64,000 nucleotides of DNA from a virus. Where the stretch lies: the IMG/VR virus record IMGVR_UViG_3300034105_001195, positions 1 to 64,000 of that record; one strand, written 5' to 3'. Position numbers and translations under genes: made by a program. Positions 2,037 through 39,322 of this stretch are shown in pieces. The notes beneath the pieces were generated by a model that was not told where the DNA came from, did not search any database, and saw only the letters and a list, made by a program, of their open reading frames with translations. Each line of letters starts with the position of its first letter. The first letter of the stretch is position 1.

Positions 2037-2045
2037 AGTATAGCA
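2037..2045 (-). promoter_or_regulatory. Extended -10 promoter (TGCTATACT) upstream of recA
   Basis: TGnTAnnnT motif in the intergenic gap; the same motif recurs across the window. Confidence 0.5.
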
Positions 2046-2393: not shown

Positions 2394-2583
2394 TTTTCTC
2401 CCTTAAACTAAAAGTAAATGACGGGCCTTCCTCGTCATAATCTATAACTAAATCCTTATTGCTTACATTGACATCTAGGAATCTAAGGGTCGGAACCGTT
2501 AGCTTTCCATATTCTTCAAGTAGTGCGACTAGAACCTGATTCATACTAATTGAAGTAATTAAACCATCAACATCTTCTGTCAT
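2368..2583 (-). CDS. Hypothetical protein
   Basis: Fills the gap between dnaE and the MazG-like gene with overlapping start/stop codons. Confidence 0.7.
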   Translation of the reverse strand: MTEDVDGLITSISMNQVLVALLEEYGKLTVPTLRFLDVNVSNKDLVIDYDEEGPSFTFSLREKNGVESDSN

Positions 2584-5500: not shown

Positions 5501-5849
5501 AAAAGCCTTCGTTCCAAGCAAGCTCTTGGAGAGTATTGATATTCTCTAATCCCTTTTTATTTTTTGCTAACAGGATGATATGGTTATACGCTTGAATAGA
5601 TTTGTCTGTCTTTGAAGCCTTGTCAAATCTATCTGTTGGAGATATGTAGGCTTCTACTCCAAGGATTGGCTTTATGCCTTCTTCTTTACAGGCAATTTGC
5701 ATTTCACGGTGTGATGATAATGTACCGTGATCTGTAATTGCTATTGCTGTCTGCCCCGCCTCTTTTGCAGCACGAACAAGTTCGAGGGGAGAGTTAAGAC
5801 CATCCATTAAAGAATAGTAGGAATGCACATGCAAATGTGTAAATTTCAT
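2580..5849 (-). CDS. dnaE: DNA polymerase III alpha subunit (family C)
   Basis: PHP domain HLHVHS/ITDHG; GPGRGSAAGS; catalytic FPDIDTDF; GYSFNRSHA; C-terminal OB fold. Confidence 0.97.
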   Translation of the reverse strand: MKFTHLHVHSYYSLMDGLNSPLELVRAAKEAGQTAIAITDHGTLSSHREMQIACKEEGIKPILGVEAYISPTDRFDKASKTDKSIQAYNHIILLAKNKKGLENINTLQELAWNEGFYHKPRIDREVLDLYSEGIIVLSGCLNGLISKAIDRGSLDEARTLLEGFKKTFGPDFYVEVQSHNPEPINSALLELADELKIKAVATGDAHFAKEEDRVLEEAMLILSTSPKMDKDADFEMSRQIKDINERLNYLYPDRRISFQDYNLFIQSRDEIEADFNKAGITRTDIYENTMEIADKVQEYDFNSGLDLLPVPKTDADEKLSQMASEGLKRLGLQDSQVYIDRLKEELSVIKDKSFASYFLVVADMINWAKSNDIKVGPGRGSAAGSLVCYALGITDVDPIKYDLLFFRFINPERNDFPDIDTDFEDRRRKEVKDYLKKKFKHVASISTYTYFKDKGVIRDAARVFMVPLSDVNRAMKSIDTFEDFVESPNTKEFRTKYPEVLWLADRLRGRIRSVGVHAAGVVVAKDDLRKYAPVESRADASDLVSGRIPVVAYDMDTVADIGLIKLDALGLKTLSVISDTLASIKKRSGKDINLSALTLDDPDVYKVLSEGYTKGVFQAEATPYTNLLIKMGVDKFEDLAASNALVRPGAMNTVGASYIKRKHGDEAVQFIHPIMKPFTENTYGVIIYQEQVMQACVHLGGMTWSEADKVRKIIGKKKDAKEFDQFKDRFIDGASKHISKKQAETLWHTFEAHAGYSFNRSHAVAYSMLSYYTAWLKTYYPLEFMFSILKNENDKDARTEYLIEAKRLKLSIKLPHINESDVFFSLKEDSIRFGLGEVKFISDSIANKIIDHRPFNSYSEFIDKASKKGSGINSRAISALNAIGAAAFPDNPRSGNEKDSYYEYLGIPTFNLEGIPPRIKSQARPIEEFEDLGSFVMFGMVKSIKRGNGWARIELVDETGSIGLFHTEQTQIETGQMYFILVGDNRIARYVKVSEIDPTGSNSFVDYLYKKQYDLDEDEYIVVDFTPYVTKAGKTMSHIILSNAQKELTRVIAFPTMYKMSLAKMREGMKCNVVLSTLDDGTLMVKEIK

Positions 5850-5872
5850 TTAACTCTCCGCCTCTTAACCTA

Positions 5873-6538
5873 TTACCAGTCTACGCTACTTGAAGAAGTA
5901 GACTCTTCGCCATTTGCTTCACCAGCAAAAAATGCTTCTTGCTCTGTGTATGGCATGTCACGCACTGCTGTATCCTCAAGCTGATAAAGCTCAAGTGATG
6001 AACCATCAAATGGTGCTTCATCTTTTGCAAGCGGGATAATTGTGTAACTTGTGTCTGTCTTTGTACCAGTACGCTTGATGCGCCACATTAGGTTAGTAAT
6101 GCTTCCCATCTCTCCAGCATACTCAATAAGTGTTGGTGTGATTGTCTTACCACTTGAACCCTGAGACAAGATTCCTACATAAGGATCTTCCTTGCCATCA
6201 TCTACAAGAACATTAATGTAAAGTCGTGAACGACCCTTCCATCCTGCCTTGTAATCCTTGCGGTGTTGTTCGCAACCGTAGCACTTACCTTGGTCTTCCA
6301 TTGTGCATAGGGCCTTACGGCGATAGTCTTTTGGATTTGTGTGTTCTACTGCAATAAATCCAAGACCTAGTTTTTCATTGTAGGTAGGTGAGTCTGGATC
6401 AAGTTCTTGAAGAAAACGAACTTTAACGCTTTCTGCATCCTCTAACTTAACCCAACGAGCCTTTGTACCGTCTCCACCTGAAGACTGTGGCTTGTCCATT
6501 ACTTTGTTAAGGTCTTTCAACCCTCTTACTATTCCCAT
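5873..6538 (-). CDS. Single-stranded DNA-binding protein (T4 gp32-like)
   Basis: VRFL...H...C...CYGC zinc site, RTGTKTDTSYT and an acidic tail ending in W; lies in the replication operon. Confidence 0.75.
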   Translation of the reverse strand: MGIVRGLKDLNKVMDKPQSSGGDGTKARWVKLEDAESVKVRFLQELDPDSPTYNEKLGLGFIAVEHTNPKDYRRKALCTMEDQGKCYGCEQHRKDYKAGWKGRSRLYINVLVDDGKEDPYVGILSQGSSGKTITPTLIEYAGEMGSITNLMWRIKRTGTKTDTSYTIIPLAKDEAPFDGSSLELYQLEDTAVRDMPYTEQEAFFAGEANGEESTSSSSVDW

Positions 6539-6591
6539 GTTTCCTCATTTCATATAGTTGATGGTGTATATCCATCTTTAGTTTGTTTTTA

Positions 6592-7590
6592 TTATGGGGT
6601 CCAAGATCTGTATTCTATGTCTGACACTGCATTTTTAATACAGCTTTTAATTTCTTCGTCAGTCATATCACCAGCATCTTTTGCATCATGTGGATATATC
6701 TTACCATATTCGTAAGAAGCCCACAAGAGGTCTTTATTCTTTAATCTATTGGCTATGCTCAAGCCTAGCTCTCTGCCTGCCAAATCTGCGTCTGTCATTA
6801 CTGTTATCTTATTAAAATATCTATTTAAAAGCTTGTGCTGCTCTGTCGACAATACCCCACCAAGCACTGCTACTACGTTTGGAAATCCAGCTTGATGTAT
6901 TCTAATTGCATCAAAGTTAGACTCAACTACAATAACATGCTCACCAATTCTCTTAGCACGGTGTACATTAAATAAAGTTTTGCTCTTAGGCAGGTTGGTA
7001 CTATTCTTAAATGACTTGCCTTCAATTGATCTTCCTACCAAACCAATGGGGGTTCCGTCTGGACTATGTACTGGAGTAATAACCATATTCATTGAAGTAG
7101 AATATCCCAATCCGAAATGGTTCATAGACTCTTCATTAATACTTCTTGATTTAAGATAGTCTTTTGCGCTTTGGCTTGCTAAAAGATCTGTATGAAGTCT
7201 ATCTAAGGTCTCTTGTGAAAACTCTTCGAAGTCTGGTTTTTCTTCAAACATATTTGCCATAATCTCATCAAAATTATTTAGGGCCGCTTGCTCTTGCGTT
7301 GCAATAAATCTAATTGCTTCGAAGTCATTTTTGTGCAGCACACGTCTAACTAATTCAGTTAATGTTCCAGACTCTCCGCATGATGGATTAAAGCATAGCC
7401 ATACCCCTGAAGATTTGTTTATGCAGCAACTTGCAGTATGTCTATTAGAATGAAACGGGCAGTAAAACATAACCTCATTACCTGGTTCCGCAACTATATC
7501 TAAGCCTAAAGCTTTTATTACTGACTTGATATGGTTGGGCGCATATTGCGTGGAATCAATTTTCCTTGCGTTATACCCTCTGATAGCCAT
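6592..7590 (-). CDS. dnaG: DNA primase (DnaG-like; CHC2 zinc finger + TOPRIM)
   Basis: CPFH...CFNPSC zinc finger; VVESNFDAI and MTDADLAG TOPRIM motifs; KDAGD. The start is probably at MAIRG (7590); the ORF track extends to 7641. Confidence 0.9.
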   Translation of the reverse strand: MAIRGYNARKIDSTQYAPNHIKSVIKALGLDIVAEPGNEVMFYCPFHSNRHTASCCINKSSGVWLCFNPSCGESGTLTELVRRVLHKNDFEAIRFIATQEQAALNNFDEIMANMFEEKPDFEEFSQETLDRLHTDLLASQSAKDYLKSRSINEESMNHFGLGYSTSMNMVITPVHSPDGTPIGLVGRSIEGKSFKNSTNLPKSKTLFNVHRAKRIGEHVIVVESNFDAIRIHQAGFPNVVAVLGGVLSTEQHKLLNRYFNKITVMTDADLAGRELGLSIANRLKNKDLLWASYEYGKIYPHDAKDAGDMTDEEIKSCIKNAVSDIEYRSWTP

Positions 7591-7817
7591 GCCTTCTTCT
7601 TTCCTACGTATACTCCATAGAGTGTCATTAAGAACACCCAAGTTTGTCCGTCAAAGTCTATCGAAAAACTAGTGTCTATGTCAAGTACTCTGACATAACC
7701 TTTGCTTCTCATATCGTGAGTCAGCATGCTTTCGTACTGGTATCTTAATCTAGGTATACCAGAATCGTCAGCAAACTCAACCCTTACTTGAAATCTTTTT
7801 ATCTGTTTGTGGTTCAT
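7518..7817 (-). CDS. Hypothetical protein overlapping the helicase end and primase start
   Basis: ORF in the track; likely start MNHKQIKRF at 7817; protein-like composition. Confidence 0.6.
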   Translation of the reverse strand: MNHKQIKRFQVRVEFADDSGIPRLRYQYESMLTHDMRSKGYVRVLDIDTSFSIDFDGQTWVFLMTLYGVYVGKKKAWLSEGITQGKLIPRNMRPTISSQ

Positions 7818-9045
7818 CTTTTTGGAATGGATTCTCGTAAATCTCCTTGACGATACCACGGTTGATATCCCAGTCTAGATAGAAATTAAAATCATGACCG
7901 TGTCTATTCTTGCGAGAGACAATCTCAATCATATTAGTTTGTGGGTATCTGTGAACGGCTAGAGCCATATCAGCATCATACTCAATTGCCTTTGACCAAG
8001 CAACTTGGCTCATCATTGGCGGATTATCTTGATCAGATACATCATCTGCCGTGGCTGCAGTAATATCAATAATAGGAATGTTGTTTGATACGGCAAGCAT
8101 TTTGAACTCACGAGAAACGTTTCTATTTCTTTCTACTTCAGAGTTGCTTCGCTTGTTGTCATTAAATAGCTGGTGGTAATCTAGGATAACTAGGTCTGGC
8201 TTATGCTGATCTATCTTACCTTGGATCGTTGCAGGTGTTACTTCTGATGCACCTTCATTTGAGATTAGAACAAAACTATTCTTCCCCTCAAACTTTTTGT
8301 TTCCCCAGTTACGGAAATCATCAATGTTAATATCACCTTTTGACAAATCACTTGCACGGAAAATACCTGAGCCAAGCATTGTAAAGATACGGTCACGCAT
8401 ATTCTCTGGTGACATTTCAAGAGATACAATCATTGGCTTAAAGCCCTGCTCCCAAGCCTTGCAAGCAAGGTATGAAGTAAACCAAGTCTTACCTTTTCCT
8501 GGCCAACCAATAGCAACGATAAGATGTCCTGGAGCCATTCCTGTTGGGTATGCTTTATCAATTGCTTCAAACCCTGTAAGAATTCCTGGAGCGCCTCCCA
8601 TAACGGAAGATCTCTCCTTAACTGCTTCATAGTGTCGTGCTGCATTTTCTACATCAATAATATCTAAGTCACGAACATTGTTTGTAAATCTGCTTAGGTT
8701 TGCTAAGTCGCTTTGCATTTGTGCAAGAACTCTAGATGCTGCATCTTCTTTGAGTGCAGATCCTCCACGCAAGATAATAGTTTTTAGTTTGTTTGAGATA
8801 AACTCATTCTTTAATATGTCTAGATAGTATCCAGTCTCCGCCTTAGCCTCTACTGGCTCAAAGTCCTTATGACGTTCCATAAGAACGCCTGCTTCTGGCA
8901 CTGCCTTAAACTTGTAGTAGTATGACTTTAGGCTTTCCCATATGTCTCTATGTGATGTAAATAGCTCATCAACGTTATCTGCAAGTAGTGTACTGATATC
9001 TTTATTCTTACACACCGCAGAGATTAAGGTTGCTTCTGTATTCAC
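7777..9045 (-). CDS. dnaB: Replicative DnaB-like helicase
   Basis: GWPGKGKT Walker A, SLEMS, VILDYHQL, IEYDAD and RKNRHG motifs. Confidence 0.93.
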   Translation of the reverse strand: MNTEATLISAVCKNKDISTLLADNVDELFTSHRDIWESLKSYYYKFKAVPEAGVLMERHKDFEPVEAKAETGYYLDILKNEFISNKLKTIILRGGSALKEDAASRVLAQMQSDLANLSRFTNNVRDLDIIDVENAARHYEAVKERSSVMGGAPGILTGFEAIDKAYPTGMAPGHLIVAIGWPGKGKTWFTSYLACKAWEQGFKPMIVSLEMSPENMRDRIFTMLGSGIFRASDLSKGDINIDDFRNWGNKKFEGKNSFVLISNEGASEVTPATIQGKIDQHKPDLVILDYHQLFNDNKRSNSEVERNRNVSREFKMLAVSNNIPIIDITAATADDVSDQDNPPMMSQVAWSKAIEYDADMALAVHRYPQTNMIEIVSRKNRHGHDFNFYLDWDINRGIVKEIYENPFQKDEPQTDKKISSKG

Positions 9046-11767: not shown

Positions 11768-11971
11768 TTATGGCGTATTGTTGTCTAGCCCGTGTAAAGA
11801 ACTATATGACTCGGTTGTCATATCTTCATCTGTGATTCCATCGTGCCTCGCAAAAACTTCTGTTAGCAATGAGCCACAATCTGGACAATTTGCATAAGCA
11901 AAGCTTGAATCTATAGATGATGCGTAAAGTTCTTTATCATCTATACAGACCGCACAAAAAAACTTAAACAT
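11768..11971 (-). CDS. Small zinc-ribbon protein
   Basis: CAVC...CPDC ligands; TAATG-coupled to the tail fibre gene. Confidence 0.6.
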   Translation of the reverse strand: MFKFFCAVCIDDKELYASSIDSSFAYANCPDCGSLLTEVFARHDGITDEDMTTESYSSLHGLDNNTP

Positions 11972-14748
11972 TATCTTGCCTCCAATTCTAATATTTTTTG
12001 CTCCATGGCTTCAACCTTTTCTTTTAGCTCTCTAACTATTGGTATTAAAAGCATTGGTATTTTTTGTTCATTTTTAAGTGATGTCGGCTCTCCGTTTAAA
12101 TTTCTTTGCACAAATATTCCTAGTCCCGCATCTTCTAAGTCTTCTACGATTGGTCCAAATCCATGCTGTCCCCATACGCTTGAATCTGTTTCTGGGTGAT
12201 TGTGCTTGTAGGTATAGAATGCTGGATTTATATCAAGAACTCTATCGTAATATGATTTTGGAGCGTATGTAATATTTTCTTTAAATCTTCTTGAAGATGT
12301 ATCGTTTACAAGGCCTCCTCCTGCTATATACCTATAATCTCTTGCTCTAATATCATTTCTAATTTCAGCAGCGTAACTTCTTTGCGAGGAATCCGCTGCA
12401 AATCTAAACGTTTTTGTTTTAGTATTAACATAAAAAGATGATCCAGGAACAGTTGTATCCTGTCCAGCTATAAAAGCATACGTTCCAGTAGAATAGCTTC
12501 CACTTTCCCAGCCAAAATGCATTATTGTATCATTAGATGGATTTTGAAATAAAATTCTAGGTCCTACTGATGTATCTGCGTATAGATCTGAAACTGAGCT
12601 AATATTAAATCCAGCTATTTTACCGCTTGTAGCAGTAATTGCACCCTTCATTGATATAGTGCCCGTACTGCTAATGCTTAAATTTTGAGATCCCCCACTA
12701 TACCCACGAATTCCATTGCCGTCAATAGCAAATCCATTTGTTGTATTACCACCAGTGATATTTAATCTTGCAACGTCAATTGTTCCAGTAGTAATACGAT
12801 CACCATTTATTACAGTAGTATTGTATGCAAGTACTGTATTAATATCTCCTGCCGCCATTTTTAAAGCTGCTAAATCTTTTGCTTCTTGTGCTCTTTGCTG
12901 GGCTAGCGTTACACCAGTTTCTGCTGCTACTGCTTTGTCATAAGCTGTATCAGCTCTACTTTGTGCAGTAGAAGCAGCACTACTTGCTGCTGTTGCAGTA
13001 TTAGATGCTGCTGTTGCAGTATTAGATGCAGATGTAGCAGTGCTAGATGCAAGAACAATTGAATCGTATGTAGAGCCACTGCTTATTACAATCTGACCTG
13101 ATATTTGTGCTCCAGATGCATATAGCTTTCCTTCTTTTGTTACTGCAAAATGATTATTAGCAGCAGTTTGAGCGTCTTGAGATCCAACCCACAATCTGTA
13201 TGTTGGATGAGATGCGTCAAGCTTTACAATAGAGTTAAGTGTTCCTGTTGTATCTCCTAAAGTTATAATTCCAGTGTTTTCAATTTTAGTGTTAGAGGAT
13301 GAAAATCCTGTTGTTGCTAATGTCCAGCCGCCAACAGTTCCAGACCTTGCATCTATTTGACCAGTTGACTGCTGCAAAGAGAATGTCAATCCTGTTGTAT
13401 TGTCTATGCTTGTAGAATTATACGCAAATATACCTTCGCTACTTAATCTTACTCTTGCTCCTGATGTAGGGTTTGCTCCAGCATAGAGTGTTCCGCTTGT
13501 TGTTCCGCCTGTTGGAATAGCAAGCTGAACGTTTCCTGTAAATTTGCCGCCTGTTGCATTAACGTTTCCAGTTAAATATAAGTTGGTCCCATTCCAGTAC
13601 ATAAACTCTGTTGGGTTTCCAACTCTAAACTGGCCTGTAGTAAGCCAGAAGTTGTTTCCAACATTTGTCGTAGACTTGTTTAATATAATTCCGTGATATG
13701 TTCCTGGAGTTAATGTTGGGGTTACTAGTGGGTCTGTGTTTAAGTTAATACTTTGGGATATGCCTGTTCCTATTTTAAATAGGTCTTGTGATGCTCCGCC
13801 TATGGCTATAAAAGATTTAAGTCTTGCTAATGCGCCTGCTGCTGTTCCGTCTGCATCGGAAGCAATAAATGTTCCACTTGCAGCACCAGTCCAGTTTACA
13901 ACATCGTAAGGTGTTGTTGATGCAACTTGATAATAATATGTTGTATTTGGAATTAATCCTGTTGCAGTAAAGGAAGTTGTTGATCTTCCGCTTACAGATG
14001 CATACTCCCAAAGTGGGGTTGCTCCAACTACTGATGGATCATTTGTTGACCATCTTAGTGCGTAACCAGCGGTCTTTGTATCTGCAGACTGAGTCCAATT
14101 AATGGTTGAGACAAGACTAAATCCGCTTAAGTCTTTCGGATCAATTGATGCGCTTGCACTTGGATTTGTTGGATTTGCAACAGTATATGTCGTGTCAACA
14201 TCTGCGCTAAATGGGGTGACTGGACCCGCAGTTACTTCTGATATATTTAAATCATCCCACTTATCTCTAGACCTAACTTTTACCCAGCGTGGAGCAAATG
14301 CATTAGCCCCTGTTGTAAGAATTGAAACATTAGTTGATGTTCCTGTATAAACAATAGTTTGTGTAGCAAAATTGCTTGTAAGGCTTTCAAATATAACAAC
14401 ATCTTCTTGTACGCTTGCAGGGTCAATATCAAACTTAACTCCGTAAGATTGAGAGCCTGCCGTTAATGTTAAGTTCTGTACCGCCTTGGTTAAATTAGGA
14501 ATAGCAAAAGTTTCTGTCCAAATCGGAGACGAGTCGCTGAACTTTTTCTCTTTTGTATCTGCATTTTCGTGCTCATACTTAAACCAAAACTTATATTTCT
14601 TGTTCTTAATAAGAGGCAAAATTACTTTTACTGTATAAGAGGATTTAGACGTAGAAGCAGCAGATGCGGCTGACGCTACATTTGTCTTTTCTAAATCAGC
14701 AGGCAGGTCTTGCTCCCACCATCTATCGCCATATCCCCTTGTTGTCAT
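11971..14748 (-). CDS. Tail fibre/spike with Fn3-like domains and a C-terminal intramolecular chaperone (peptidase S74-like)
   Basis: GLIPNTTYYYQV Fn3 signature; beta-rich repeats; coiled coil; SSRRFKENI...GPIVEDL...coiled-coil chaperone. Confidence 0.8.
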   Translation of the reverse strand: MTTRGYGDRWWEQDLPADLEKTNVASAASAASTSKSSYTVKVILPLIKNKKYKFWFKYEHENADTKEKKFSDSSPIWTETFAIPNLTKAVQNLTLTAGSQSYGVKFDIDPASVQEDVVIFESLTSNFATQTIVYTGTSTNVSILTTGANAFAPRWVKVRSRDKWDDLNISEVTAGPVTPFSADVDTTYTVANPTNPSASASIDPKDLSGFSLVSTINWTQSADTKTAGYALRWSTNDPSVVGATPLWEYASVSGRSTTSFTATGLIPNTTYYYQVASTTPYDVVNWTGAASGTFIASDADGTAAGALARLKSFIAIGGASQDLFKIGTGISQSINLNTDPLVTPTLTPGTYHGIILNKSTTNVGNNFWLTTGQFRVGNPTEFMYWNGTNLYLTGNVNATGGKFTGNVQLAIPTGGTTSGTLYAGANPTSGARVRLSSEGIFAYNSTSIDNTTGLTFSLQQSTGQIDARSGTVGGWTLATTGFSSSNTKIENTGIITLGDTTGTLNSIVKLDASHPTYRLWVGSQDAQTAANNHFAVTKEGKLYASGAQISGQIVISSGSTYDSIVLASSTATSASNTATAASNTATAASSAASTAQSRADTAYDKAVAAETGVTLAQQRAQEAKDLAALKMAAGDINTVLAYNTTVINGDRITTGTIDVARLNITGGNTTNGFAIDGNGIRGYSGGSQNLSISSTGTISMKGAITATSGKIAGFNISSVSDLYADTSVGPRILFQNPSNDTIMHFGWESGSYSTGTYAFIAGQDTTVPGSSFYVNTKTKTFRFAADSSQRSYAAEIRNDIRARDYRYIAGGGLVNDTSSRRFKENITYAPKSYYDRVLDINPAFYTYKHNHPETDSSVWGQHGFGPIVEDLEDAGLGIFVQRNLNGEPTSLKNEQKIPMLLIPIVRELKEKVEAMEQKILELEAR

Positions 14749-19506: not shown

Positions 19507-19974
19507 TTATACCTCTTCTAAAGATAAAGATACATCCCAAAACTCTTGCGGGACTGAGGCTGTAGTAGATTTAACATTTCTTTTAGATACAGTAAAACTA
19601 CATGATGTAAAGGAGGCTAGAATAATTTCATCTCTTGCAGAAACTGCATTATAAGATATCTTAACCTTAAATGTTCCCTTACCTTTATTTAAATAGAATG
19701 CTCTTATATCTTCTGCACCCATTCCACCGTCCACGGTCATGGTGCTATATGTAGGGATATCTCCCCAAGAAGCAGATACTGTTTTTTTATCTGCAATCCA
19801 TATTTTTCTCAATGAGCCATTTGACATTCTTTGAGTCTTTTCAATTCTGTCTACGTCTACCGACGCTGAGCCTCTATTATGCTCAGACAATTTTGTCCAA
19901 GTTGGGGTATTTGCGTCTGTGCCTGTGTCAAAATAAATTAATGATCCTACAGGAAGTGTCATTGGATAGCTCAT
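19507..19974 (-). CDS. Distal tail (Dit-like) protein
   Basis: Immediately follows the TMP; RMSNGSLR and terminal SLSLEEV typical of Dit/lambda gpM-like proteins. Confidence 0.6.
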   Translation of the reverse strand: MSYPMTLPVGSLIYFDTGTDANTPTWTKLSEHNRGSASVDVDRIEKTQRMSNGSLRKIWIADKKTVSASWGDIPTYSTMTVDGGMGAEDIRAFYLNKGKGTFKVKISYNAVSARDEIILASFTSCSFTVSKRNVKSTTASVPQEFWDVSLSLEEV

Positions 19975-22900
19975 GTTTTAATACTCACATTCATTGGGTT
20001 ACCCTTCATTTTAGCATTTAACTTTGTATCTTGTCCAATGGCCTGCTTTGTCATTGATACCACTTGTCTTACAAATGCATCAGTATTCATACCTTCAGAT
20101 GGGTATATGTTCTGTGTAAGATTAATTACGTTTCCGCCGCCTCTAGAATCGCTCATTGGCTCAAACATTTTGGCTGCTTGACCTACATCATATCTTGGAG
20201 ATGCAAATGGTAGCTTAGCCATATTAGGGATAACCATTCCTCCAAACGCCATTTCTGGTCCACGGTCTCCAACAATTGTAGGAACCTTTGGATTAAGCTT
20301 CATGGTTCCATATCCAGCTTTTACTGCTTGAACATTAAGGCCTGCTGGTGAACCATCACCTGTTACTTTCCATTTTTTACCATTCTTATCTAAGAACTCA
20401 ACACCAATCCAGGTAGAGCTTGGCCTTCCATTTTTAGTATTTGTTGTTTGTGTTGCACCTGCTGCGATTAAGGTAGATGGATGAACAATTGTAGCTCCTG
20501 CATAGGCTCCAGCAGTTGCTCCCAGAGTTGTAGGAACAGAACTAATCTTAGCGGTAGCCTTTGACGGACTCATGTCCATTTTCTTGCCATTAATATTAAT
20601 GTCTCCTGTCATTGCGTCGACAGTAATTCCCTTTGAGGCTAAGCCTTTTGTAATAGCGCCTTCTACTCCGCCCATAAAACCTGCAGCCTGGTCTGTCACG
20701 CTTGGATTATTTACCCTAGGAGATCTCTTTAATTGCAACTTAGGCGTGACAATTGTTTCTGGTCTTGCTGTGTTTACGGTTCCAACTACACCTGCTGAAG
20801 CGGCTTGGCCTTCAGGTGTTTTTGCATACTCCTCTAGAGTCATTCCTAAAGCATAGGCATTAATTCTTAATGTAGTCATTGCTTGATTAACATCATTAAT
20901 TTGTTGCGTCTGTGTTGCAATCTTTTTATTTAATGCACCTAAATTTTCTGCTGCAAGAGCTGCATTATCTGACATCTTTTCTTGTCCAGCGTTGATTGCT
21001 TTAATTTTAGCTTCAAGAGGAGCATTGGCCAATTTGTTTGCATCTTCAATTGCTTTCTTCTGTGAATTATATTGTAGGGTAGACTGAAGCCCTTCCATAT
21101 CAAGGCTTGCCTGCTGAGCACCTGCTGTATTTCCAGTTGCAATTGCAGCATCGTATTCCGCCTGCTTTTTAGCAATCTCTCTGCCAAGGTCACCCTCTTG
21201 CTTTGCTGCATCAAGGGCTTTTAGCCTTGCATCTGCTAGCTTGTTGTTTGCATCTATCTGACTTTGTAAACGCTTTAATTCGTTTTTAGTATCAATTTGT
21301 TTTTGAGCGCTTTGGCCTTTAGCCGCTTTCTCTAGAACATCTCTCTGATCTGTTAACTTTTTTAAAGCTTTATAATTTTCTTTTAGTAATCCTTCTTTGT
21401 TTGCTGAAGCAACCGATGCGGCAACTGAATCGGCAACCATAGACAAATTCCTTACTGCTTCGGCGCCTAGTTGTGAAAGATCTCCAGTAAAGCCCTTTGC
21501 CCCAAGACTCATTTTTTCAAATAGGCTAACAACTGTATCCATAGGGTTAATAATTTTTCTAAGTTCTGGATTTTGTTTAATCATTTCTGCTCTAGTTCCT
21601 GCAGTAAGTACGGCCTTAGAAGACTCTAGTTTATTTAACTTTTTAAGCATTGCTTCTTGTGCTTGATACTCAGTTAATACTTTTGTGTTTCCGCTCTTGT
21701 CTGCTTTTGCAGCCTTCTTGCTTTTTTCAATCTCATCTATAATTCCAGCCTGTATAGCCATCAGACCAGTGTTGACTGCCTTTGCGCCTTCACGTCCATT
21801 ATTTGCTGAAGCAGAAACATAATTGTTTATTGCAGATTCTGCTGCATCCTGGCCTGTTCTAATATTTTTAAATGCACGGTTGCCTACAGTAAATGCTCCA
21901 GCCTTTTCTGCCTGATCAGAAAGCTTAAACATTGCAAATATTTTTTTGCTTGCTTCATCCGCTGACATTCCAGCGGCCATCAATGCGGTCTTAATATCGA
22001 TTGCTACCTGCGGAAGCTCTGATTCCTTAGATTGATTAATTAATTTAATTTGATCGGTATAGGTTTCCTTAACTTCTTTCTTAAGCTTTTTATACTCTTC
22101 AATTGTCATAGAAATAGGAAGCCCCGCATCTTGCATGCTTTCAAAAAGCATTTGGTTTCTTTCTCGTATGGCTTCTATATTTTTAACTGTATCAGCAAGC
22201 TTAGAGTTATAATCAGTAAACTTAAGTCCTGCCTTTTGAGCAGCTTCTGCTGTAAGGCCATAGCGTGTTGCTCCAATTCTTAAATGCTCGTTATGGTCTC
22301 TCATTCTCTTAATGCCCAAAGCAATAGTTGTAGAAAGTCCTGCAACTACAAGATTTGCCCTAGTTGCCATTAATGCTACTCTTCCAAGCATTGGTGCAAG
22401 TTTAGAACCGCTAGCTGCTAGCTTGTCCGCTTGTAATGCTGCTTTACCCGCACCTGGAAGTGATTGTGCTAATGTATTTCCAAGTCCGCCCATTCTTGAT
22501 GTGACTGGTCCAGTCTTTCTGTCAGAAACTGCACCTGAATATGTAAATCCTTCTGGCCTTTGCTTCCCGCCGCCGCCCATCATCATAAATGGAATAATTC
22601 CACCTAAAGTAGATAGTGCTGTCCCCCCCATTCCTCCAATTTTGCCACCCAACATTTGTGCAGCAAAAGCTGCAATTAGAGGCCCTATCATTCCGCCTAT
22701 GTTATATCCTTGAGCCATTGTCGATCTATTTGGAATAATACCTCCAGCGTTTCTAGGAACAAAAACTTCTGGGCCTTTTTCTCCCACAACGTATGGCTGT
22801 CCAGCATTAACTGGTCCGCCCATTTCTCTTTTTTCTAAACCAAATATAACTTGCTTTAAAGAGTCTGTAAGTGGTGTATCTTTTTTAGATTCCCAATTTA

Positions 22901-25900
22901 AGAATTTCTTTCTTAGTATGTCTTTATCAATTGGTGATAATTGAGACAGAACAGCTCTATCTCCTATAAGATCCGAAGCAGCAGATCTTATAACTGAATC
23001 TAACACGTCTGGCTCAAGAGCATTCTTTAAAGACCCCTGTGCATCTTTAACATAACCGTAAGGTTTTTCTTTTGCAAGAGCTGCAGCAAACTTATCATAG
23101 AATAACTTTTGAGTATTCTTTCTTAATCCCGTGCTAGCAAATAATGTTTCAGCCATCTTAATAGATAGAGAGTTTACACCCCATGGAGCAGACTCGTACA
23201 TGCTAGGCTTAGGTGCACCTGTTGGTCCAAATCCTGCGCCAATTCTGTGCATTGCTTTACCCTTAAGTACATTTCCAATCATTCCGCCGATATTAAATCC
23301 ATTTTCTGGAGTCTTAAATGCGTTATCCGATAGACTTACGGAGTGACCCTTTTGTCTGCGCTTTAATTCATCTGCTGCAATCATTTTAGCAATAGCCGCT
23401 GGAGTCATTGTTTTTTCTGGAGACATCTTTAATGATGAATGAACTCCGTGCAAATCTCCATATGTTTGTCTTCTTGCGTCAGAGAGTCTTTGAATCATTG
23501 CATTATAAACAACCTTCTCTTCTGAGTTTAAATCGAATCTACTTATTGTTTGTTTTAGCTTAGGCAAAGCCTCATTAATCTCTTGAAGCATACGATCATT
23601 GTATTGATCTGCTGTCATTCCCTTTGGAATACTTGCAGTTGACTCAGCAAAGAATTTCTTTGTGTTGCTTCCCTTTACCCCTAGCAAATTAACCATTGCT
23701 TGGTGCTTGAATGAAGGCATTGTTGCAGAATATTCTCTTGGGCCAGAGGCTGTTGCAAATACTCCAGCTGGTCCCACATCTGCAAGAATATTACCAGATA
23801 GATTTCCCCTACCTAGGTCTTTATCTCCACGCAATGCTGAAGCCACTAGTTGTCTAAAGTATTGATCAGATGTGAACTTGCCGTCTTGATTTGCTATAGC
23901 AGGATTGTACTTAGACTCTAGTGCTAGTATTCTTCTTGCACCCGTTGGGTCTGTTGGATCTTTCATTACAACAACTCTTTGATTAGGTGTTTGTAGGCCA
24001 TGTACGTCACGAGCAATTTCAGTTGCCCTCAATTCAGCAAGTGCTGCTTTTTCATCTAGTACTGGCTTAACAAAAACTTTATCTCCGCCTTTACTATAAA
24101 CTCCACCAATTCCAGCTACTGGGAAACTTCTTCCAGATGTTGGCTCTAGCAATCCATCATAATCGGTTACTGGAGTTTTGCTGAATCTAGAATCTTTGAC
24201 TGCTTGATTTGCCTTTTCCATTGCAGCTTTTGCTGCTCTTTGAGCTTCTACCTGCTTAATAGTTCTAGGCATTCCAAGGAACATCGCTTTGCCGCCTCTG
24301 AATAATTTCTGTGCAAACTGCCCTGGAACCTGACCTCCCATATTAAGTCTTCTTCCTGGCTTCTTAGCTTTTAAAAAGTCCATGAATACTTTTGTTATTC
24401 CAAAGTTATGTTTTAATCTTAACGGAGCCTTGATAATTCTTTCTTCAGTTCCAGGTCCTGTGCCTAACCCTAAAACCTTTCCTATTGTATCAATAGCCTT
24501 TCGCTTTTCTGTTTCAGTTTGTGGCAATCTGTCTTCAAAAGGATTTTCGTGATTTTTTGTTAAGTTTGCAAATGTACTTGTCCATAAATTTTGTTCTTTA
24601 TTTCCCGCCATTGCTTGACCAAAATTACCAGTTGCGCTGTAGCCGTATTGTCCTGCTTTTTGAATGTGCTCTGTGGCATAAGCATGAATATTTGGCTCCC
24701 ATCTTCTTGATTTTTCATTCCAAATTGATTTGCCAAATAGCTCCATCTGTAATCTTTTAACTTCCCCAGCGTTTGCAAATCCCATCTTTGTCAATGTATT
24801 AATTAAAGACGGTGAAGGATGAATAGCATGATGCCTATTGCTAGCCTTTATATTTATTCCAGAAGAAGTTTTAACTGGTGGCTTAAGCAGCCCTCCTCCT
24901 ATTTTTTTATCTAATTCTCTAGTTTGTTTTTCTTTTATTTCTCGCATTCTTTCGTCATCAATTGTGTCTGTTTTAGGGTCGTAAGCATACTGTCTTGCTT
25001 CATCATATAGTCTTTTGGCTGTACGAACTGATTCAACTTCTGACATTCCTAAACCATTAAGTATTGCTGCGTCATGCATTACGTGCCTGACTTGTGTGTC
25101 TTCTAAAAAGTTCTTTGGAATTGATAGTCTTGAAACGTATGCAGATGCTCCTCTTATATTATTTTCTGCTTGCCTTCTTATTCCACCGCCTTCATATCTT
25201 CCCATGCCAGAGGTGTTGCCTGGTCCGCCATTTAATGAATACATTAAAGGCATATTCTTTTGTGCAATACTTGCTGGAATAACTGCTTCTCCAGGAGTTA
25301 ATACAACTGGAACCTGTCCGCCTGTTGCATATCTTGGGGTCCCACCTAGTAGGCTCTTTACGGTTGACATATTTTGTTCTGTAGATTTTTTATTAATTAC
25401 GAATGCGCCTGGTTCTGCTGTTGTGTGGTATGTGTCTGTGTTGCCTGTACCAGGAACAATGCCACCCCGAGCAAACTTAGGCTTTGTTGTTTGAATATTA
25501 TATCCTGCTCCTGAAGTTCTTACGCCCCCAAGTGCTCTTGCAATTCTATCAACTAAGGTCTTTGTCGACCCCTTATGGAACATCTCTTTCATATTTGATT
25601 TACCACTTGCTGGATCAACCACTGGCTGAGATGTAAATGGAACTGTAGTTAGATTTGCTGTTCGCCCCATTGCCGTTGCAGTTGCAGCGGTTGTTTCTGC
25701 AAGCATTGCTTCAACTGTTGCATTTAGTTGTATTACTTTTGCTCTTGCTTGATCCACTGTTATCTTGCTTGCCTGAAGCTGCTTAACAATTGCTTCAGTT
25801 TCTAATGCAGCAAGTTGAGTAATTTCAGAAAATTGTGGTAGCAATGCCTGATATGAATCTGCTAGGCCAGAGGTAATTGTGCCTGTTGCCATAACCTCAG

Positions 25901-28181
25901 CCTTTAATACTTTAATTTCTGCTTCTGATTGCATTGCAATTGCCGCTGTCATTGCATGCCACTTTGCTGCTTCTTGTGCAACAACACCTGTTGATATTCC
26001 ATTTACAGATGTAACACCTGGAATCTTTGGAAGATCTTGATTCATATATGCTTGAGGGTTTTTACCAATTCTAACATTTACTGGAGACGCTCCTGGAACT
26101 GTTCCAAATATAGTTCCTGGCTGTTGTGTCTGAGCTGGAATCATATGAGACATATCTCTTGTGTATGCTTCGCCAACTAGTGGGTTATTCTTATCTACAA
26201 ATCTTTGCCCGCTTGGACTTCCAGCTGCAATTACTCCGCCTGCAAGTGTTGAGATTCCTGGCTGCACTGCAACCTTTGCAGAGTTAGCCTTTATCTCAAG
26301 AGTATCAAATGATGCGGCAAGAGTATTTATTGCATTTGTTAATACAATTGTTGCTTCTGTATCCGAGTAGAATGATGTAGCAAGACCTTTAGCTGCAGCA
26401 TCTGCTGCCATAATTTCTGGAGTAAGTAATTTAAATCCTTGTCCGCCTTTTACTAGCTGTCTTAGGTGAAATATTCCCTTGATGACATATCCAATAAAGT
26501 TGCCCATAACACCAGCCAACATAATAATTGGTCCAGATACTGCGGTTATTCCTCCTAGTACATTTAGGAATGTCTTTACTGGCTGTGGAAGCTTCTGGAA
26601 GAATTTAATAATTCCGTCTACTACTTCTAAAACCTTTGTACTAATTACTAAAAATTGGTTTCCAACTGCTGCAAGATCTGCTTGAACTGAAGCAAGAGCT
26701 CTCTTAAATTTACCAGATGCTGACTCTGTCAACATACCTAATTCTCGGGCTGAAATATTTGCAAGATCCGTTGCGCTTGACTTCATCAAATCCATTACCT
26801 GAAGCGTCTGGGATCCTTCTTTTCCTAAGTTTGCAAATAGAGCGGACATTCTTGCATACTGGAATTTACCGAATAGCTGCTCAATTGCTCTTGATTTGCT
26901 TAGTGGGTCTAAGTTGTCTAGGGCTGATTGAAGATCCATAATTGTCGCAGTTAGGTTGCCTGCGTTAGATGTTACAATCTGATCAATATCTATTCCAAAG
27001 CCATTAAACATTTCTTTAGCAACCTTTGTTGGGTTGATAAGAGAAGCCATTGCTGACTTAATTGCGTTAGCACCTTCTGATGCGTTTACTCCGCCTTCTT
27101 TCATTGCAGTTAAATACAATGCTAAATCTTTTACGTCTCCACCAAGAGACTTTACAACGGGACCTGCTTTAGGAATTGCTTCAACTAAATCTGCTAGGCT
27201 TGTTGAGGTTTGGTTTTCAACTGCGTTAAGGAAGTCAATAGACTGTGTAAGTTCTTCAGTGCTTGACTTAAATGCATTCTGAATAGCAAGAGTTGCCTTC
27301 ATGGCCTCTTGTCTATCTACTTCTCCAAGGATTGCAAGTCTAGAAGTTTCTTTTGTTGCTTCAAGTAGTGCTTGTCCCTGTTGTCCAGTTGCAGCTAGAT
27401 CTGCGGCAAGTCCGATTGTATCTTTATATGCAATACCGTATGCTCCCGCAATTTCTCTTGCTGTTTCTGAAACATCTTTTCTTACCTTTGCAAGCTCTAC
27501 TGCAGATACTGAAGATAGGCCACCGTAAACCTTTTGCAGTCTGACTAACTCTTGATCAGCTTCTCTAAAAGCTTTTTGTGCAGCCATACCAAATGCTGCT
27601 AGTGGTACGGTTAATCCTACTGTTAACTGACGACCTGCCCACTGAGTATTCTTACCCCAGTTAATAAGACTTGTTGCTCCATCATTCATCACCTTGTTCA
27701 TGATGGCAAGTTCTTGTCTTGCTATTGCTGTCTTATTCTTTACTTCATCTAGACCCTTTGCAACCATTACGTTATATTGCATTAAGCCCTGTGCGTTTTT
27801 ACCTACAGGTTGAATAATTGCTTGCTCAAGCATTACCTGCTGTTTTGCAAGGTCTCTAACTAGATTGCTAGTCCTCTTTGTATGCCCGCTCCATGTGTTG
27901 TAGTAGTCATTTAGCTTTAGTCTGCCTCTGTCTAAATTTTTGCCAAACTTTTCTACATCTGAAGTGAGGGATACGAAGTGTTGCGAGAACTGGCCTGTTG
28001 ATGTAAGCGTTGTTGCAAACGCCTTATTCATTACTGCAATTTGATTTGCAAGTTTAGCGTTAGTTCCCGCTGTAACTTCTTGTAACTTTAAGAGTTGGGC
28101 AGTAGTCGCAGCCAGTTGGGTTCTTAAGCCCGTAAAGTCTGCGTTGGCGGTAATATTGGTGGTGATTAAATTATCTGCCAT
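19971..28181 (-). CDS. Tail tape measure protein with inserted cargo domains (includes a kinase-like domain)
   Basis: Follows the chaperone pair; TP901-type TMP core (WAGRQLTVGLTVPL, ENQTSTSLADL, EGGVNASEGANAIKS); hydrophobic segments; PGEAV/GEKGPE motifs; inserted globular domains at aa ~900-1830. Confidence 0.92.
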   Translation of the reverse strand: MADNLITTNITANADFTGLRTQLAATTAQLLKLQEVTAGTNAKLANQIAVMNKAFATTLTSTGQFSQHFVSLTSDVEKFGKNLDRGRLKLNDYYNTWSGHTKRTSNLVRDLAKQQVMLEQAIIQPVGKNAQGLMQYNVMVAKGLDEVKNKTAIARQELAIMNKVMNDGATSLINWGKNTQWAGRQLTVGLTVPLAAFGMAAQKAFREADQELVRLQKVYGGLSSVSAVELAKVRKDVSETAREIAGAYGIAYKDTIGLAADLAATGQQGQALLEATKETSRLAILGEVDRQEAMKATLAIQNAFKSSTEELTQSIDFLNAVENQTSTSLADLVEAIPKAGPVVKSLGGDVKDLALYLTAMKEGGVNASEGANAIKSAMASLINPTKVAKEMFNGFGIDIDQIVTSNAGNLTATIMDLQSALDNLDPLSKSRAIEQLFGKFQYARMSALFANLGKEGSQTLQVMDLMKSSATDLANISARELGMLTESASGKFKRALASVQADLAAVGNQFLVISTKVLEVVDGIIKFFQKLPQPVKTFLNVLGGITAVSGPIIMLAGVMGNFIGYVIKGIFHLRQLVKGGQGFKLLTPEIMAADAAAKGLATSFYSDTEATIVLTNAINTLAASFDTLEIKANSAKVAVQPGISTLAGGVIAAGSPSGQRFVDKNNPLVGEAYTRDMSHMIPAQTQQPGTIFGTVPGASPVNVRIGKNPQAYMNQDLPKIPGVTSVNGISTGVVAQEAAKWHAMTAAIAMQSEAEIKVLKAEVMATGTITSGLADSYQALLPQFSEITQLAALETEAIVKQLQASKITVDQARAKVIQLNATVEAMLAETTAATATAMGRTANLTTVPFTSQPVVDPASGKSNMKEMFHKGSTKTLVDRIARALGGVRTSGAGYNIQTTKPKFARGGIVPGTGNTDTYHTTAEPGAFVINKKSTEQNMSTVKSLLGGTPRYATGGQVPVVLTPGEAVIPASIAQKNMPLMYSLNGGPGNTSGMGRYEGGGIRRQAENNIRGASAYVSRLSIPKNFLEDTQVRHVMHDAAILNGLGMSEVESVRTAKRLYDEARQYAYDPKTDTIDDERMREIKEKQTRELDKKIGGGLLKPPVKTSSGINIKASNRHHAIHPSPSLINTLTKMGFANAGEVKRLQMELFGKSIWNEKSRRWEPNIHAYATEHIQKAGQYGYSATGNFGQAMAGNKEQNLWTSTFANLTKNHENPFEDRLPQTETEKRKAIDTIGKVLGLGTGPGTEERIIKAPLRLKHNFGITKVFMDFLKAKKPGRRLNMGGQVPGQFAQKLFRGGKAMFLGMPRTIKQVEAQRAAKAAMEKANQAVKDSRFSKTPVTDYDGLLEPTSGRSFPVAGIGGVYSKGGDKVFVKPVLDEKAALAELRATEIARDVHGLQTPNQRVVVMKDPTDPTGARRILALESKYNPAIANQDGKFTSDQYFRQLVASALRGDKDLGRGNLSGNILADVGPAGVFATASGPREYSATMPSFKHQAMVNLLGVKGSNTKKFFAESTASIPKGMTADQYNDRMLQEINEALPKLKQTISRFDLNSEEKVVYNAMIQRLSDARRQTYGDLHGVHSSLKMSPEKTMTPAAIAKMIAADELKRRQKGHSVSLSDNAFKTPENGFNIGGMIGNVLKGKAMHRIGAGFGPTGAPKPSMYESAPWGVNSLSIKMAETLFASTGLRKNTQKLFYDKFAAALAKEKPYGYVKDAQGSLKNALEPDVLDSVIRSAASDLIGDRAVLSQLSPIDKDILRKKFLNWESKKDTPLTDSLKQVIFGLEKREMGGPVNAGQPYVVGEKGPEVFVPRNAGGIIPNRSTMAQGYNIGGMIGPLIAAFAAQMLGGKIGGMGGTALSTLGGIIPFMMMGGGGKQRPEGFTYSGAVSDRKTGPVTSRMGGLGNTLAQSLPGAGKAALQADKLAASGSKLAPMLGRVALMATRANLVVAGLSTTIALGIKRMRDHNEHLRIGATRYGLTAEAAQKAGLKFTDYNSKLADTVKNIEAIRERNQMLFESMQDAGLPISMTIEEYKKLKKEVKETYTDQIKLINQSKESELPQVAIDIKTALMAAGMSADEASKKIFAMFKLSDQAEKAGAFTVGNRAFKNIRTGQDAAESAINNYVSASANNGREGAKAVNTGLMAIQAGIIDEIEKSKKAAKADKSGNTKVLTEYQAQEAMLKKLNKLESSKAVLTAGTRAEMIKQNPELRKIINPMDTVVSLFEKMSLGAKGFTGDLSQLGAEAVRNLSMVADSVAASVASANKEGLLKENYKALKKLTDQRDVLEKAAKGQSAQKQIDTKNELKRLQSQIDANNKLADARLKALDAAKQEGDLGREIAKKQAEYDAAIATGNTAGAQQASLDMEGLQSTLQYNSQKKAIEDANKLANAPLEAKIKAINAGQEKMSDNAALAAENLGALNKKIATQTQQINDVNQAMTTLRINAYALGMTLEEYAKTPEGQAASAGVVGTVNTARPETIVTPKLQLKRSPRVNNPSVTDQAAGFMGGVEGAITKGLASKGITVDAMTGDININGKKMDMSPSKATAKISSVPTTLGATAGAYAGATIVHPSTLIAAGATQTTNTKNGRPSSTWIGVEFLDKNGKKWKVTGDGSPAGLNVQAVKAGYGTMKLNPKVPTIVGDRGPEMAFGGMVIPNMAKLPFASPRYDVGQAAKMFEPMSDSRGGGNVINLTQNIYPSEGMNTDAFVRQVVSMTKQAIGQDTKLNAKMKGNPMNVSIKT

Positions 28182-37516: not shown

Positions 37517-39322
37517 TTAAAGGCTAACTGACTCTGGCTCTACCACTGTTAGAAAGAACGGGGTGGAATCGTCACCAGAGGATGACTCTATTAGTGAAAA
37601 TGAAGTGTCGTTAATCTGATTTACCGTATTTCCCGTATAAAGCAGGTAATGGTTTAGAATTCTATTTACAGATAGGGTGGTCTCATATACGGCTACGTTA
37701 TTATACATATGCCCAATCCCAGACTTGGTGTCGTTCTGATTCTGATTAAATTTGATGCTTGTATCAGATGATGTTAGATTAATTACAATATGATGTGGTG
37801 TGTCTACTACTAGGAAGTTCCAGACATTTGTTTCCGCCGTCCTGTCTATGCCATTTACATAAATTGAGGATATCCCTGTCTTTGTTATTAGCCCCGCATT
37901 ATTCCACTCGTACTTTTTAGTAGCACCTGAGAATAGGACATTCTCATTATACTGAGGTGTGTATATAAGTTCTATGCAAGAAACGGCGGGAATAGAATTT
38001 AATGAGAATCCATGTCCATTATACATAGTCAGCCCATTGTACTTATTGTAAGAAAGGGTCTTGCTATTAAATTTTGGCAAAGCATAGTCATAGTCGGAAG
38101 ATACATAGTATCCTGAATTATCGCTATAGAAGTTCTTGCCCGTATAGAAAGCTATTTCTAGGGATCTGAGAATTGGAAGATACTTACTGGTATCTGCAGA
38201 GGATAAGGTTATCCTTAAATAAACAATCTCTGAGAACTGATCATCATTTTTATTTATATATGGAAGAGGGCTTCCATTCTTGCAAGTCCGCCAAGCAATA
38301 TTATCAATGCTTGCCTCTACTAGAATTCCAGTTACATCGTTGCTCCAGTGGATTTGAGATGTATCGATATTCAAATAATTAGGCACAATGAAATAGTCTG
38401 TAAATGTAAATGATGCAGTTGCTGCAGTCTCTGTCTCTGGTATATAGATATAGGAATTGTCATCAGATATTGTAATGCCGCCCGTTGCTACTTCAGACCA
38501 AGGCTTGGATCCTGGATATGAATAAATAAACTTAGGTCTAAGTGACTCTGTGTTCATGCTGAAAAGATAGCCATTGTCTGCTGATACAATTTGAGATATG
38601 TTTACTTCTTGAGTTCCCTCATTATAATGAGCCAATACCTGGGTACCAGATAAAGCGTATCTATAGAATCCTACACAGTCTACTACAAATCTACCAGTAG
38701 ACGGTCCTGATTGAAAGGTTGCTGTCTCATTGGAAAACTTGTATGAGTCTATTTGCAATGCATCAGCAATAAATCCGTTTATGTATAGGGATAATATATT
38801 GCTCTGGAATATACCTACAACATATACTACTTCAGAATTTGATACTGTGGCTTGAACCTGGTTGGCTCCAACTCTAAATATAATATTGCCGTTCTGATAA
38901 AATATGCCCGTATTTGTTGCGGTGTCTCCAACTATTGTTGTGCTTACGTTATATCCTGGAAGTGCACACCAAGCCTCTATGGAGAAAGAGTTATCCTTGT
39001 AATACTTTGTAGCAATTCCTTTTGGGTTGTATGCAATAATGGTTGAACTTAAAACCTCAGTTCCTCTTACCGATCCCGTAACTAAAGGCATAATCTGTTT
39101 TGAGGAAGCGGAAGAAGCAGTACCGTTATTTAGACTACCTGAGTAATCGTAAATCTGAATTCCGCTTATTTCTCCATAGTTAAGGCCACTATCTTTTAAA
39201 GCTTGATATGTTGCATATTGAGACATCAGTTCGGTATACGTGTTAGTTGTACCCGATTGAACCTCATCTAGTAAATAAAATGAGTTTGGAAAGTCGTTTA
39301 AGACTCTACTTTTATATGACAT
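37517..39322 (-). CDS. Virion protein with LamG/concanavalin A-like domains
   Basis: FSIEAW...VVGIF...LYING...VGFYRYALS..QVLAHY; a second copy at the C-terminus. Confidence 0.75.
   Translation of the reverse strand: MSYKSRVLNDFPNSFYLLDEVQSGTTNTYTELMSQYATYQALKDSGLNYGEISGIQIYDYSGSLNNGTASSASSKQIMPLVTGSVRGTEVLSSTIIAYNPKGIATKYYKDNSFSIEAWCALPGYNVSTTIVGDTATNTGIFYQNGNIIFRVGANQVQATVSNSEVVYVVGIFQSNILSLYINGFIADALQIDSYKFSNETATFQSGPSTGRFVVDCVGFYRYALSGTQVLAHYNEGTQEVNISQIVSADNGYLFSMNTESLRPKFIYSYPGSKPWSEVATGGITISDDNSYIYIPETETAATASFTFTDYFIVPNYLNIDTSQIHWSNDVTGILVEASIDNIAWRTCKNGSPLPYINKNDDQFSEIVYLRITLSSADTSKYLPILRSLEIAFYTGKNFYSDNSGYYVSSDYDYALPKFNSKTLSYNKYNGLTMYNGHGFSLNSIPAVSCIELIYTPQYNENVLFSGATKKYEWNNAGLITKTGISSIYVNGIDRTAETNVWNFLVVDTPHHIVINLTSSDTSIKFNQNQNDTKSGIGHMYNNVAVYETTLSVNRILNHYLLYTGNTVNQINDTSFSLIESSSGDDSTPFFLTVVEPESVSL

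Follow-up and report, generated by a model that had tools for sequence, protein, structure and literature searches.

Conserved double-glycine linkers appear to delimit exchangeable units, one of them kinase-like, in a giant phage tape measure protein

Introduction

Why should a phage tail ruler carry, in its middle, folded units set apart by a series of short double-glycine (GG) motifs? The question is raised by a 64,000-nucleotide stretch of viral DNA (hereafter the window), which comprises positions 1 to 64,000 of the IMG/VR record IMGVR_UViG_3300034105_001195, a viral record with a length of 83,353 bases and an estimated completeness of 68%. The largest open reading frame (ORF) of the window, at 19971..28181 on the minus strand, encodes P0001, a tape measure protein (TMP) of 2736 residues; this strand carries nearly all large ORFs of the window, and all coordinates of P0001 features given below refer to it. 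An earlier note on this DNA had read the GG motifs as cleavage or recombination joints of a cassette that delivers swappable cytoplasmic effectors before phage gene expression. We consider it reasonably probable that P0001 is a modular, cargo-carrying (“polyvalent”) TMP. In this view, the central 930 residues would be made up of units that fold independently and are strung together by short, conserved linkers. On the N-terminal side of this block lie the TMP core and a membrane segment; on the C-terminal side lie a glycine-zipper segment and a coiled-coil ruler.

Organization of the tape measure protein and its GG linkers

P0001 is a TMP of the TP901 type, as indicated by its PF10145 core, its matches to TMP profiles and its position in the tail module. 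The PF10145 (PhageMin_Tail) core spans residues 239-438 (26868..27467; E 5e-28, 98.8 bits versus a cut-off of 33.2) and is the only match found in a Pfam scan of the whole protein. Residues ~13-850 are covered by PHROG tape-measure families, such as phrog_10030 (E 7.6e-115). In the ORF map, P0001 is the largest gene of the tail module and lies inside a siphovirus structural module. Its neighbours encode portal, prohead protease, capsid-type and adaptor-like proteins as well as tail and minor tail proteins. Upstream come short ORFs and a protein with an Ig domain; downstream come tail proteins, along with a minor tail protein of 1145 residues (phrog_10359). The TMPs of close relatives range from 2645 to 3892 residues. 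Isolate phages align to the N-terminal third of P0001 only, the best of them being Streptomyces phages (best coverage 23%, identity 33-40%).

All eight xxxxGG motifs reported in the earlier note were found at the positions claimed: KFARGG (residues 902-907), RYATGG (950-955), RYEGGG (995-1000), RLNMGG (1278-1283), KLFRGG (1292-1297), GFNIGG (1628-1633), KREMGG (1784-1789) and GYNIGG (1825-1830). The limits of the block, 25478 and 22692, correspond exactly to residues 902 and 1830. The motifs bracket three inserts of 277, 330 and 150 residues, in agreement with the ~280, ~330 and ~150 residues given there for globular inserts; inserts 1 and 2 have confidently modelled folds, and insert 3 is modelled as helical with moderate confidence. 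As also proposed, the block lies between hydrophobic segments. A Kyte-Doolittle scan places the N-proximal, membrane-type segment at residues 537-571 (26469..26573) and a second one at residues 1828-1846 (22644-22700), which opens a glycine-rich hydrophobic stretch with four GxxxG motifs (residues ~1828-1875, 22557..22700).

Plain GG pairs are mildly enriched in residues 885-1830 (17 versus a shuffle mean of 10.1, a value of 17 being reached in 36 of 2000 shuffles). With about 16 GG sites in the block, the eight motifs are therefore a selection, 8 of ~16. The pattern [KRG][FYL]..GG, which was chosen post hoc, occurs seven times, always within the central block, compared with a shuffle mean of 0.3, and none of 2000 shuffles reached this count. 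Conservation of the motifs is the stronger evidence. Of 42 aligned relatives, all keep the GG pair at RYATGG and at KLFRGG, and 41-42 keep it at RLNMGG. N1280 and G1296-G1297 are present in 42 of 42, and a valine or isoleucine two residues past the GG is retained in 39-42. F1289 is kept in 31 of 31 relatives, and the FAQ(K/R)LF stretch between RLNMGG and KLFRGG is nearly invariant. The general form of the linkers is hydrophobic-x-(N/A)-x-G-G-x-(V/I)-(P-G).

In AlphaFold2 models, which were built with alignments of relatives (insert 3 in the same model as insert 2), the predicted local distance difference test score (pLDDT) of the motif stretches is mostly below 50. The first three motifs form a linker array (residues 902-1000, 25182..25478), recognized by its motifs, its conservation and a low-confidence beta-hairpin plus helix in the model. 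The array consists of two small hairpin-plus-helix units (KFARGG...LLGG and RYATGG...LNGG) followed by GMGRYEGGG. The linker RLNMGG-QVPGQFAQ-KLFRGG (residues 1278-1297, 24291..24350) separates inserts 1 and 2, and the GFNIGG joint (residues 1628-1633, 23283..23300) separates inserts 2 and 3. The block is closed by KREMGG-PVNAGQPYVVGEKGPEVFVP...GYNIGG (residues 1784-1830, 22692..22832), a motif shared with the cleavage region of T5 pb2; phrog_30701 and phrog_1538 match residues 1770-1825. A second, degenerate copy, VGxxGPE...FGGMVIPN, which includes MAFGGMV, is found in the sequence near the C-terminus (residues ~2628-2655, 20217..20300), and the T5-like motif therefore occurs twice in P0001.

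Homology among relatives breaks at the GG motifs

Comparisons of related proteins and genes show that the GG linkers are points where related phages exchange, lose or gain units. BLAST alignments of P0001 to 267 relatives break repeatedly at residues ~1000, ~1278, ~1628-1640 and ~1778-1782. DNA was compared by blastn of the window TMP gene against 73 IMG/VR loci. Within residues 850-1900, 175 of 188 ends of homology blocks lie within 8 residues of one of the eight motifs, compared with only 16% of positions. About seven boundary classes can be distinguished (901, 989-1006, 1280-1290, 1626-1635, 1780, 1807-1831, plus strays); borders could not be placed with sliding identity along forced global alignments, where the noise was too high. 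DNA homology ends at residues 985-1010 and is resumed at residues 1275-1305, in the linker ahead of insert 2, in 49 of the 73 loci. Eight loci are collinear through insert 1, and the other 16 are arranged otherwise or are cut by contig ends. The kinase region of insert 2 (see below) has no DNA homology in 15 loci, 14 of which keep insert 3.

Insert 1 occupies a hypervariable slot. At least 11 cassette types (with sizes of 24, 24, 13, 12, 10, 9, 7, 5, 4, 2 and 2) were identified among 112 close relatives retaining the anchors LNGG[PA]G and FLGMP[KR]. The types diverge directly after G-x-G-(R/K)-x-x-GG and stop at (hydrophobic)-N-x-GG, where the conserved linker begins. Comparison by hhalign assigned eight types to one very divergent superfamily and two to a second one, leaving one type alone (about three unrelated families); the slot therefore holds diverged alleles as well as unrelated units.

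Clean losses were also observed. Insert 2 is missing, with joins at GG motifs, from four proteins (P0137, P0208, P0213 and P0268) and four loci (L057, L059, L062 and L071), and insert 3 is missing in the same manner from P0086, P0133, P0134 and P0135; the GFNIGG joint serves as the junction in relatives lacking insert 2 or insert 3. Translations of the four loci feature clean joins, such as ...LFxG...FGIGG running into insert 3 without the kinase; in an alternative join of this set, another cassette lies between the first and the sixth motif. In P0268, the break falls at residue 947, directly before RYATGG. Extra domains located between h[AH]xGG motifs are found at the C-terminus of some relatives, for instance OmpA in P0123 and CHAP plus LysM in P0135. 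The OmpA domain of P0123 spans residues 2678-2771 of a long C-terminal extension, and the CHAP and LysM domains of P0135 fall within residues 2674-2869. Inspection by eye further revealed an APH-type HGDMHPGN...DWG kinase motif in P0123 and HExxH in P0028 and P0135. The recombination part of the earlier proposal is thus well supported: homology blocks of both DNA and protein stop and restart at GG motifs, and in alignments of related TMPs inserts are replaced, lost and gained there.

Insert 2 resembles atypical protein kinases

Insert 2 (residues 1298-1627, 23301..24290) is predicted to be an atypical protein-kinase-like domain, as judged from the AlphaFold2 model, Foldseek and VIA searches and residue conservation. 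It begins with FLGMP and contains a conserved G-loop, GIGGVY. The model exceeds a pLDDT of 90 over residues ~1305-1609. The leading Foldseek matches in the PDB are all kinases, with CtkA at E 3.2e-4 (probability 1.00) and further matches to HipA, PI4K, LepB, MavQ and PAN3. CotH is the top match obtained by VIA-align (Z 11.7, root-mean-square deviation 4.0, 216 residues aligned), followed by CtkA (Z 10.8), MavQ (10.0), PI4KIIalpha (9.7) and HipA (about 9). A catalytic set, the structural roles of which were assigned from the pattern and not by superposition, is conserved in relatives: K1372 (39/40), E1383 (40/42), D1455 (45/48), N1460 (47/48) and D1468 (47/47). The model thus points to a bilobal kinase fold with a conserved Lys/Glu pair in the N-lobe, an Asp-x4-Asn loop and a metal-binding Asp.

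The domain is found in more than 150 clusters (50% identity) at E<1e-30, almost all of them proteins of 2000-4400 residues and nearly all giant TMPs. The 188-599-residue proteins carrying it derive mostly from short contigs, and no match was found in 50,697 isolate phage records. A similar fold is present in BFVD in large phage proteins named portal or ADP-ribosyltransferase and in phage proteins named PI3K/PI4K. In the distant TMPs P0136, P0144 and P0150, near-identical units of ~45 residues (VPGPKGAGDVVPAMLSPGEAVIPA...) lie on either side of the kinase, and P0150 has three copies; these repeats could drive intragenic recombination. A HipA-like GNMDTHAEN motif was noticed by eye in P0144.

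Inserts 1 and 3

Insert 1 (residues 1001-1277, 24351..25181) is modelled as a folded alpha/beta cassette, with a pLDDT of about 90 over residues ~999-1269. In insert 3 (residues 1634-1783, 22833..23282), residues ~1671-1780 form a helical module predicted with moderate confidence (pLDDT 57-92). When the central block was searched in four pieces, DUF2434 (E 0.21) was the only Pfam match at E up to 10, and no match to PDB sequences was obtained at E up to 1. The best Foldseek match of insert 1 in the PDB has an E-value of 0.23, VIA comparison with 48,161 chains yielded helical bundles throughout (best Z 5.2), and the ESM Atlas contained no usable match. For insert 3, the ESM Atlas provided weak leads at scores of 0.77-0.78, including one cluster with LPD38 on 49% of members, which was not used. 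Structure comparison, a check suggested in the earlier note, favours a kinase-like fold for insert 2 and gives no fold match for insert 1. Eight insert-1 cassette types compared with Pfam at E up to 1 produced stray weak matches only, and a DRAH-type cassette matched PDB sequences at E 0.55 and 0.96 only. A His-Me-finger nuclease (EndA-like DRGH / H-N-N) was considered for insert 1 on the grounds of a predicted strand-strand-helix element (YATEH, AMAGN, KEQN) and of “DRAH” in other cassette types; we regard this assignment as speculative and improbable.

Other genes in the window

Several other genes were identified on the minus strand. A 925-residue tail protein (11971-14748) with fn3-like stretches has a C-terminal Peptidase_S74 domain (self-cleaving chaperone of endosialidase) and is likely a tail fibre or spike. 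A 601-residue protein with a Laminin_G_3 (concanavalin-like lectin) domain is encoded at 37517-39322, between the portal gene and the fibre genes. A 604-residue protein (43789-45603) has matches to 57 PHROG tail-fibre or collagen-like families and is therefore a repeat-rich fibre protein. Directly downstream of the tail genes lies a replication module (1012-9045) encoding RecA (1012-2016), a DnaE-like polymerase of 1089 residues (2580-5849), a Toprim/DnaG primase (6592-7641) and a DnaB-like helicase (7777-9045).

Discussion

How might a tail ruler with embedded units work? TMPs fill the tail lumen in a metastable state, leave it tip-end first and form a path across the envelope (PMC10038345, PMC11445458, PMC12617516). 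The units of P0001 may be stored unfolded in the lumen and would exit with the TMP, C-terminus first and ahead of the DNA. Trailing the C-terminal half and the glycine-zipper segment, they would emerge from the tail and refold past the membrane. In the cytoplasm, the kinase may then use host ATP to act on a target in the host, before phage gene expression. A glycine zipper is common to TMPs and to Tde1, an effector of the type VI secretion system, and is needed for passage of Tde1 across the target membrane (PMC10240207). The conserved linkers would keep the folding units apart and supply homologous DNA for recombination, which would account for the sharp cassette borders. Delivery of cytoplasmic effectors, as envisaged in the earlier note, is plausible for insert 2, given its kinase-like fold, conserved catalytic set and predicted need for ATP; no function could be assigned to inserts 1 and 3.

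Several points weigh against a cargo-carrying TMP. The kinase call for insert 2 has no counterpart in Pfam (E up to 10; only DUF2434, E 0.21) or among PDB sequences (E up to 1), and kinase-like folds can be pseudo-enzymes or kinases of small molecules or lipids. Searches of Pfam, PDB sequences and the ESM Atlas suggested no function for insert 1 or insert 3, and neither Foldseek nor VIA did so for insert 1. Because many of the 73 loci and of the 112 proteins are closely related, independent events are fewer than the counts imply. Moreover, distant homology links 8 of the 11 insert-1 types to one another, so part of the “swapping” exchanges one diverged allele for another and does not bring in an unrelated effector. 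Finally, a tail lumen has no room for three folded kinase domains, and the model assumes that the units are stored unfolded.

A second reading, compatible with modular cargo, is that P0001 is a polyprotein in which the GG linkers are proteolytic sites, and that a cut made in tail assembly or after ejection frees the kinase and other units. We hold this as a tentative possibility. T5 pb2 is cut after R1127, between a hydrophobic stretch and the muralytic motif (PMC10038345); this is the one mapped cleavage site in a TMP. The sequence at the cut (marked by a slash) is ...FVPR/AEGG...GEHGTEVV, and BLASTP aligns residues 1127-1158 of T5 pb2 to REMGG...GEKGPEVF of P0001 with R1785 on R1127 (13 of 37 residues identical, E 4e-4, a single-comparison value). 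A basic residue is found three to four places ahead of the GG in six of the eight motifs. Lambda gpH, which has one FATGG...YATGG unit past a glycine-rich hydrophobic run, loses about 14 kDa in the glycine-rich region, with site and catalyst stated to be unknown (PMC12617516), and cuts at the GG pairs of residues 709-721 would yield 13.8-14.6 kDa. However, the T5-like context is found at only one of the eight motifs, and T5 pb2 is cut two residues before the GG, not after it. Searches of the 83,353-base record (68% complete) for C39, C48/ULP and C5/adenain peptidases (PF03412, PF02902 and PF00770; E up to 1) gave zero matches, only an S78 prohead protease being present; a protease of the host may make the cut. 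Residues on either side of the GG are conserved, and the near invariance of FAQ(K/R)LF fits a structural or binding element. Database proteins beginning inside the block start at an internal Met and not at a GG; as most derive from short contigs, they are uninformative on natural gene splits at GG.

An extension of the polyprotein reading would make the hydrophobic-x-x-GG linkers a general code for TMP processing and junctions, common to T5 and lambda, with the TMPs of this large uncultivated lineage as true polyproteins. A host or self activity would cut them at the linkers or close by, and the kinase and its fast-evolving companion effectors would reach the cytoplasm before the DNA does. We consider this rather unlikely.

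It is also doubtful, in our view, that the inserts are parts of the ejection machine (channel, plug, or envelope or lipid binding) rather than effectors, with the GG stretches being plain hinges and penetration being aided by the kinase-like domain, either as a pseudo-enzyme or as a kinase of lipids or small molecules. The nearest folds of insert 2 do include the lipid kinases PI4K and MavQ, the other cargo of relatives acts on the envelope (OmpA, CHAP and LysM), known TMP cargo is muralytic (PMC1796659, PMC10038345), and the central block sits between membrane-type segments. In contrast, the complete Lys/Glu/Asp/Asn/Asp set is conserved, which argues for ATP-dependent catalysis, and ATP is found only inside the cell. 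Insert 1 turns over very fast amid flanks that are 77-87% identical, and so looks conflict-driven rather than a fixed part.

Although the source record is an incomplete (68%) metagenomic viral contig, an artefact, whether through mis-assembly, fusion of ORFs or motifs arising by chance, is refuted by the relatives and by conservation: the P0001 protein cluster has 17 member sequences from 4 contigs, the architecture is common to hundreds of relatives, and the motifs are kept in 41-43 of 42-43 aligned relatives.

A cargo-carrying TMP of this kind shares features with several known systems. Like P0001, T5 pb2 is a TMP with a hydrophobic stretch, an enzymatic cargo and an R-x-x-GG...GE-x-G-x-E-V motif. 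In T5 pb2, however, the cargo is one small C-terminal muralytic domain, whereas in P0001 the motif follows three large inserts in the middle of the chain and a kinase-like domain is among the cargo; moreover, T5 pb2 is cut at the motif, which in P0001 is a candidate site. Lambda gpH likewise features a glycine-rich hydrophobic stretch followed by a FATGG...PAGIVHRGEFV...YATGG unit, but has no embedded globular cargo, and its alignment to the linker-array units of P0001 is weak (E 0.045). Host-like enzymatic motifs that are dispensable for ruler function are embedded in the TMPs of the mycobacteriophages TM4 and Barnyard (PMC1796659). In contrast to the inserts of P0001, they are small peptidoglycan hydrolase motifs acting outside the membrane, and an array of cassettes with standard linkers is not described for them.

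The polyvalent proteins of Iyer et al. 2017 are giant virion proteins with several conflict-type domains, including kinases, and cassette-like variation, and are thought to enter the host with the DNA (PMC5512222). P0001 has one kinase-like domain and two folded units, to which relatives add OmpA, CHAP and LysM. The carriers differ, including N4-like virion RNA polymerase polyvalent proteins and MuF-domain fusions and not a tail ruler; the term “tape measure” has no occurrence in PMC5512222. The processing proposed there relies on embedded MPTase peptidases, none of which were seen in P0001. Effectors of contractile injection systems (CIS), such as Tme and Sle1, combine a TMP-like carrier, membrane segments and coiled coils with an exchangeable functional domain, which in Tme is an endonuclease (PMC11126660; PMC13277306). 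Unlike P0001, they are cargo of bacterial CIS and not a phage ruler and feature a single C-terminal functional domain; a GG-linker array or a kinase is not reported in the parts of these sources at hand.

Kinases of the HipA/CtkA/CotH/PI4K branch share with insert 2 the bilobal fold and the catalytic Lys, Glu, Asp-x4-Asn and Asp. Insert 2 differs in having no sequence-level Pfam or PDB match and in occurring almost only inside giant TMPs. Polymorphic toxins provide another parallel: short conserved motifs (VENN in CdiA, DPxGL in Rhs) mark the site at which variable cassettes recombine, and the Rhs motif is also a site of self-cleavage. The motif and the carrier are different from those of P0001, and a single C-terminal toxin stands in place of an internal chain of units.

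In the literature covered, which did not extend to subscription journals, no report was found of cassette arrays delimited by GG motifs, or of a phage TMP with a kinase-like domain inside it. A large survey of mosaicism in phage proteins could not confirm genuine recent mosaicism in TMPs (PMC10684548); the P0001 family, in contrast, offers clear cases with sharp borders. The conserved linker motif that coincides with T5 R1127 is a concrete, mutable candidate signal for TMP cutting. A kinase-like enzyme in the tail ruler would extend the range of pre-made injected effectors from proteins packaged in the head to the lumen of the tail, and linkers of a standard type hint that cargo can be plugged in naturally, in parallel with the TMP-related CIS effectors.

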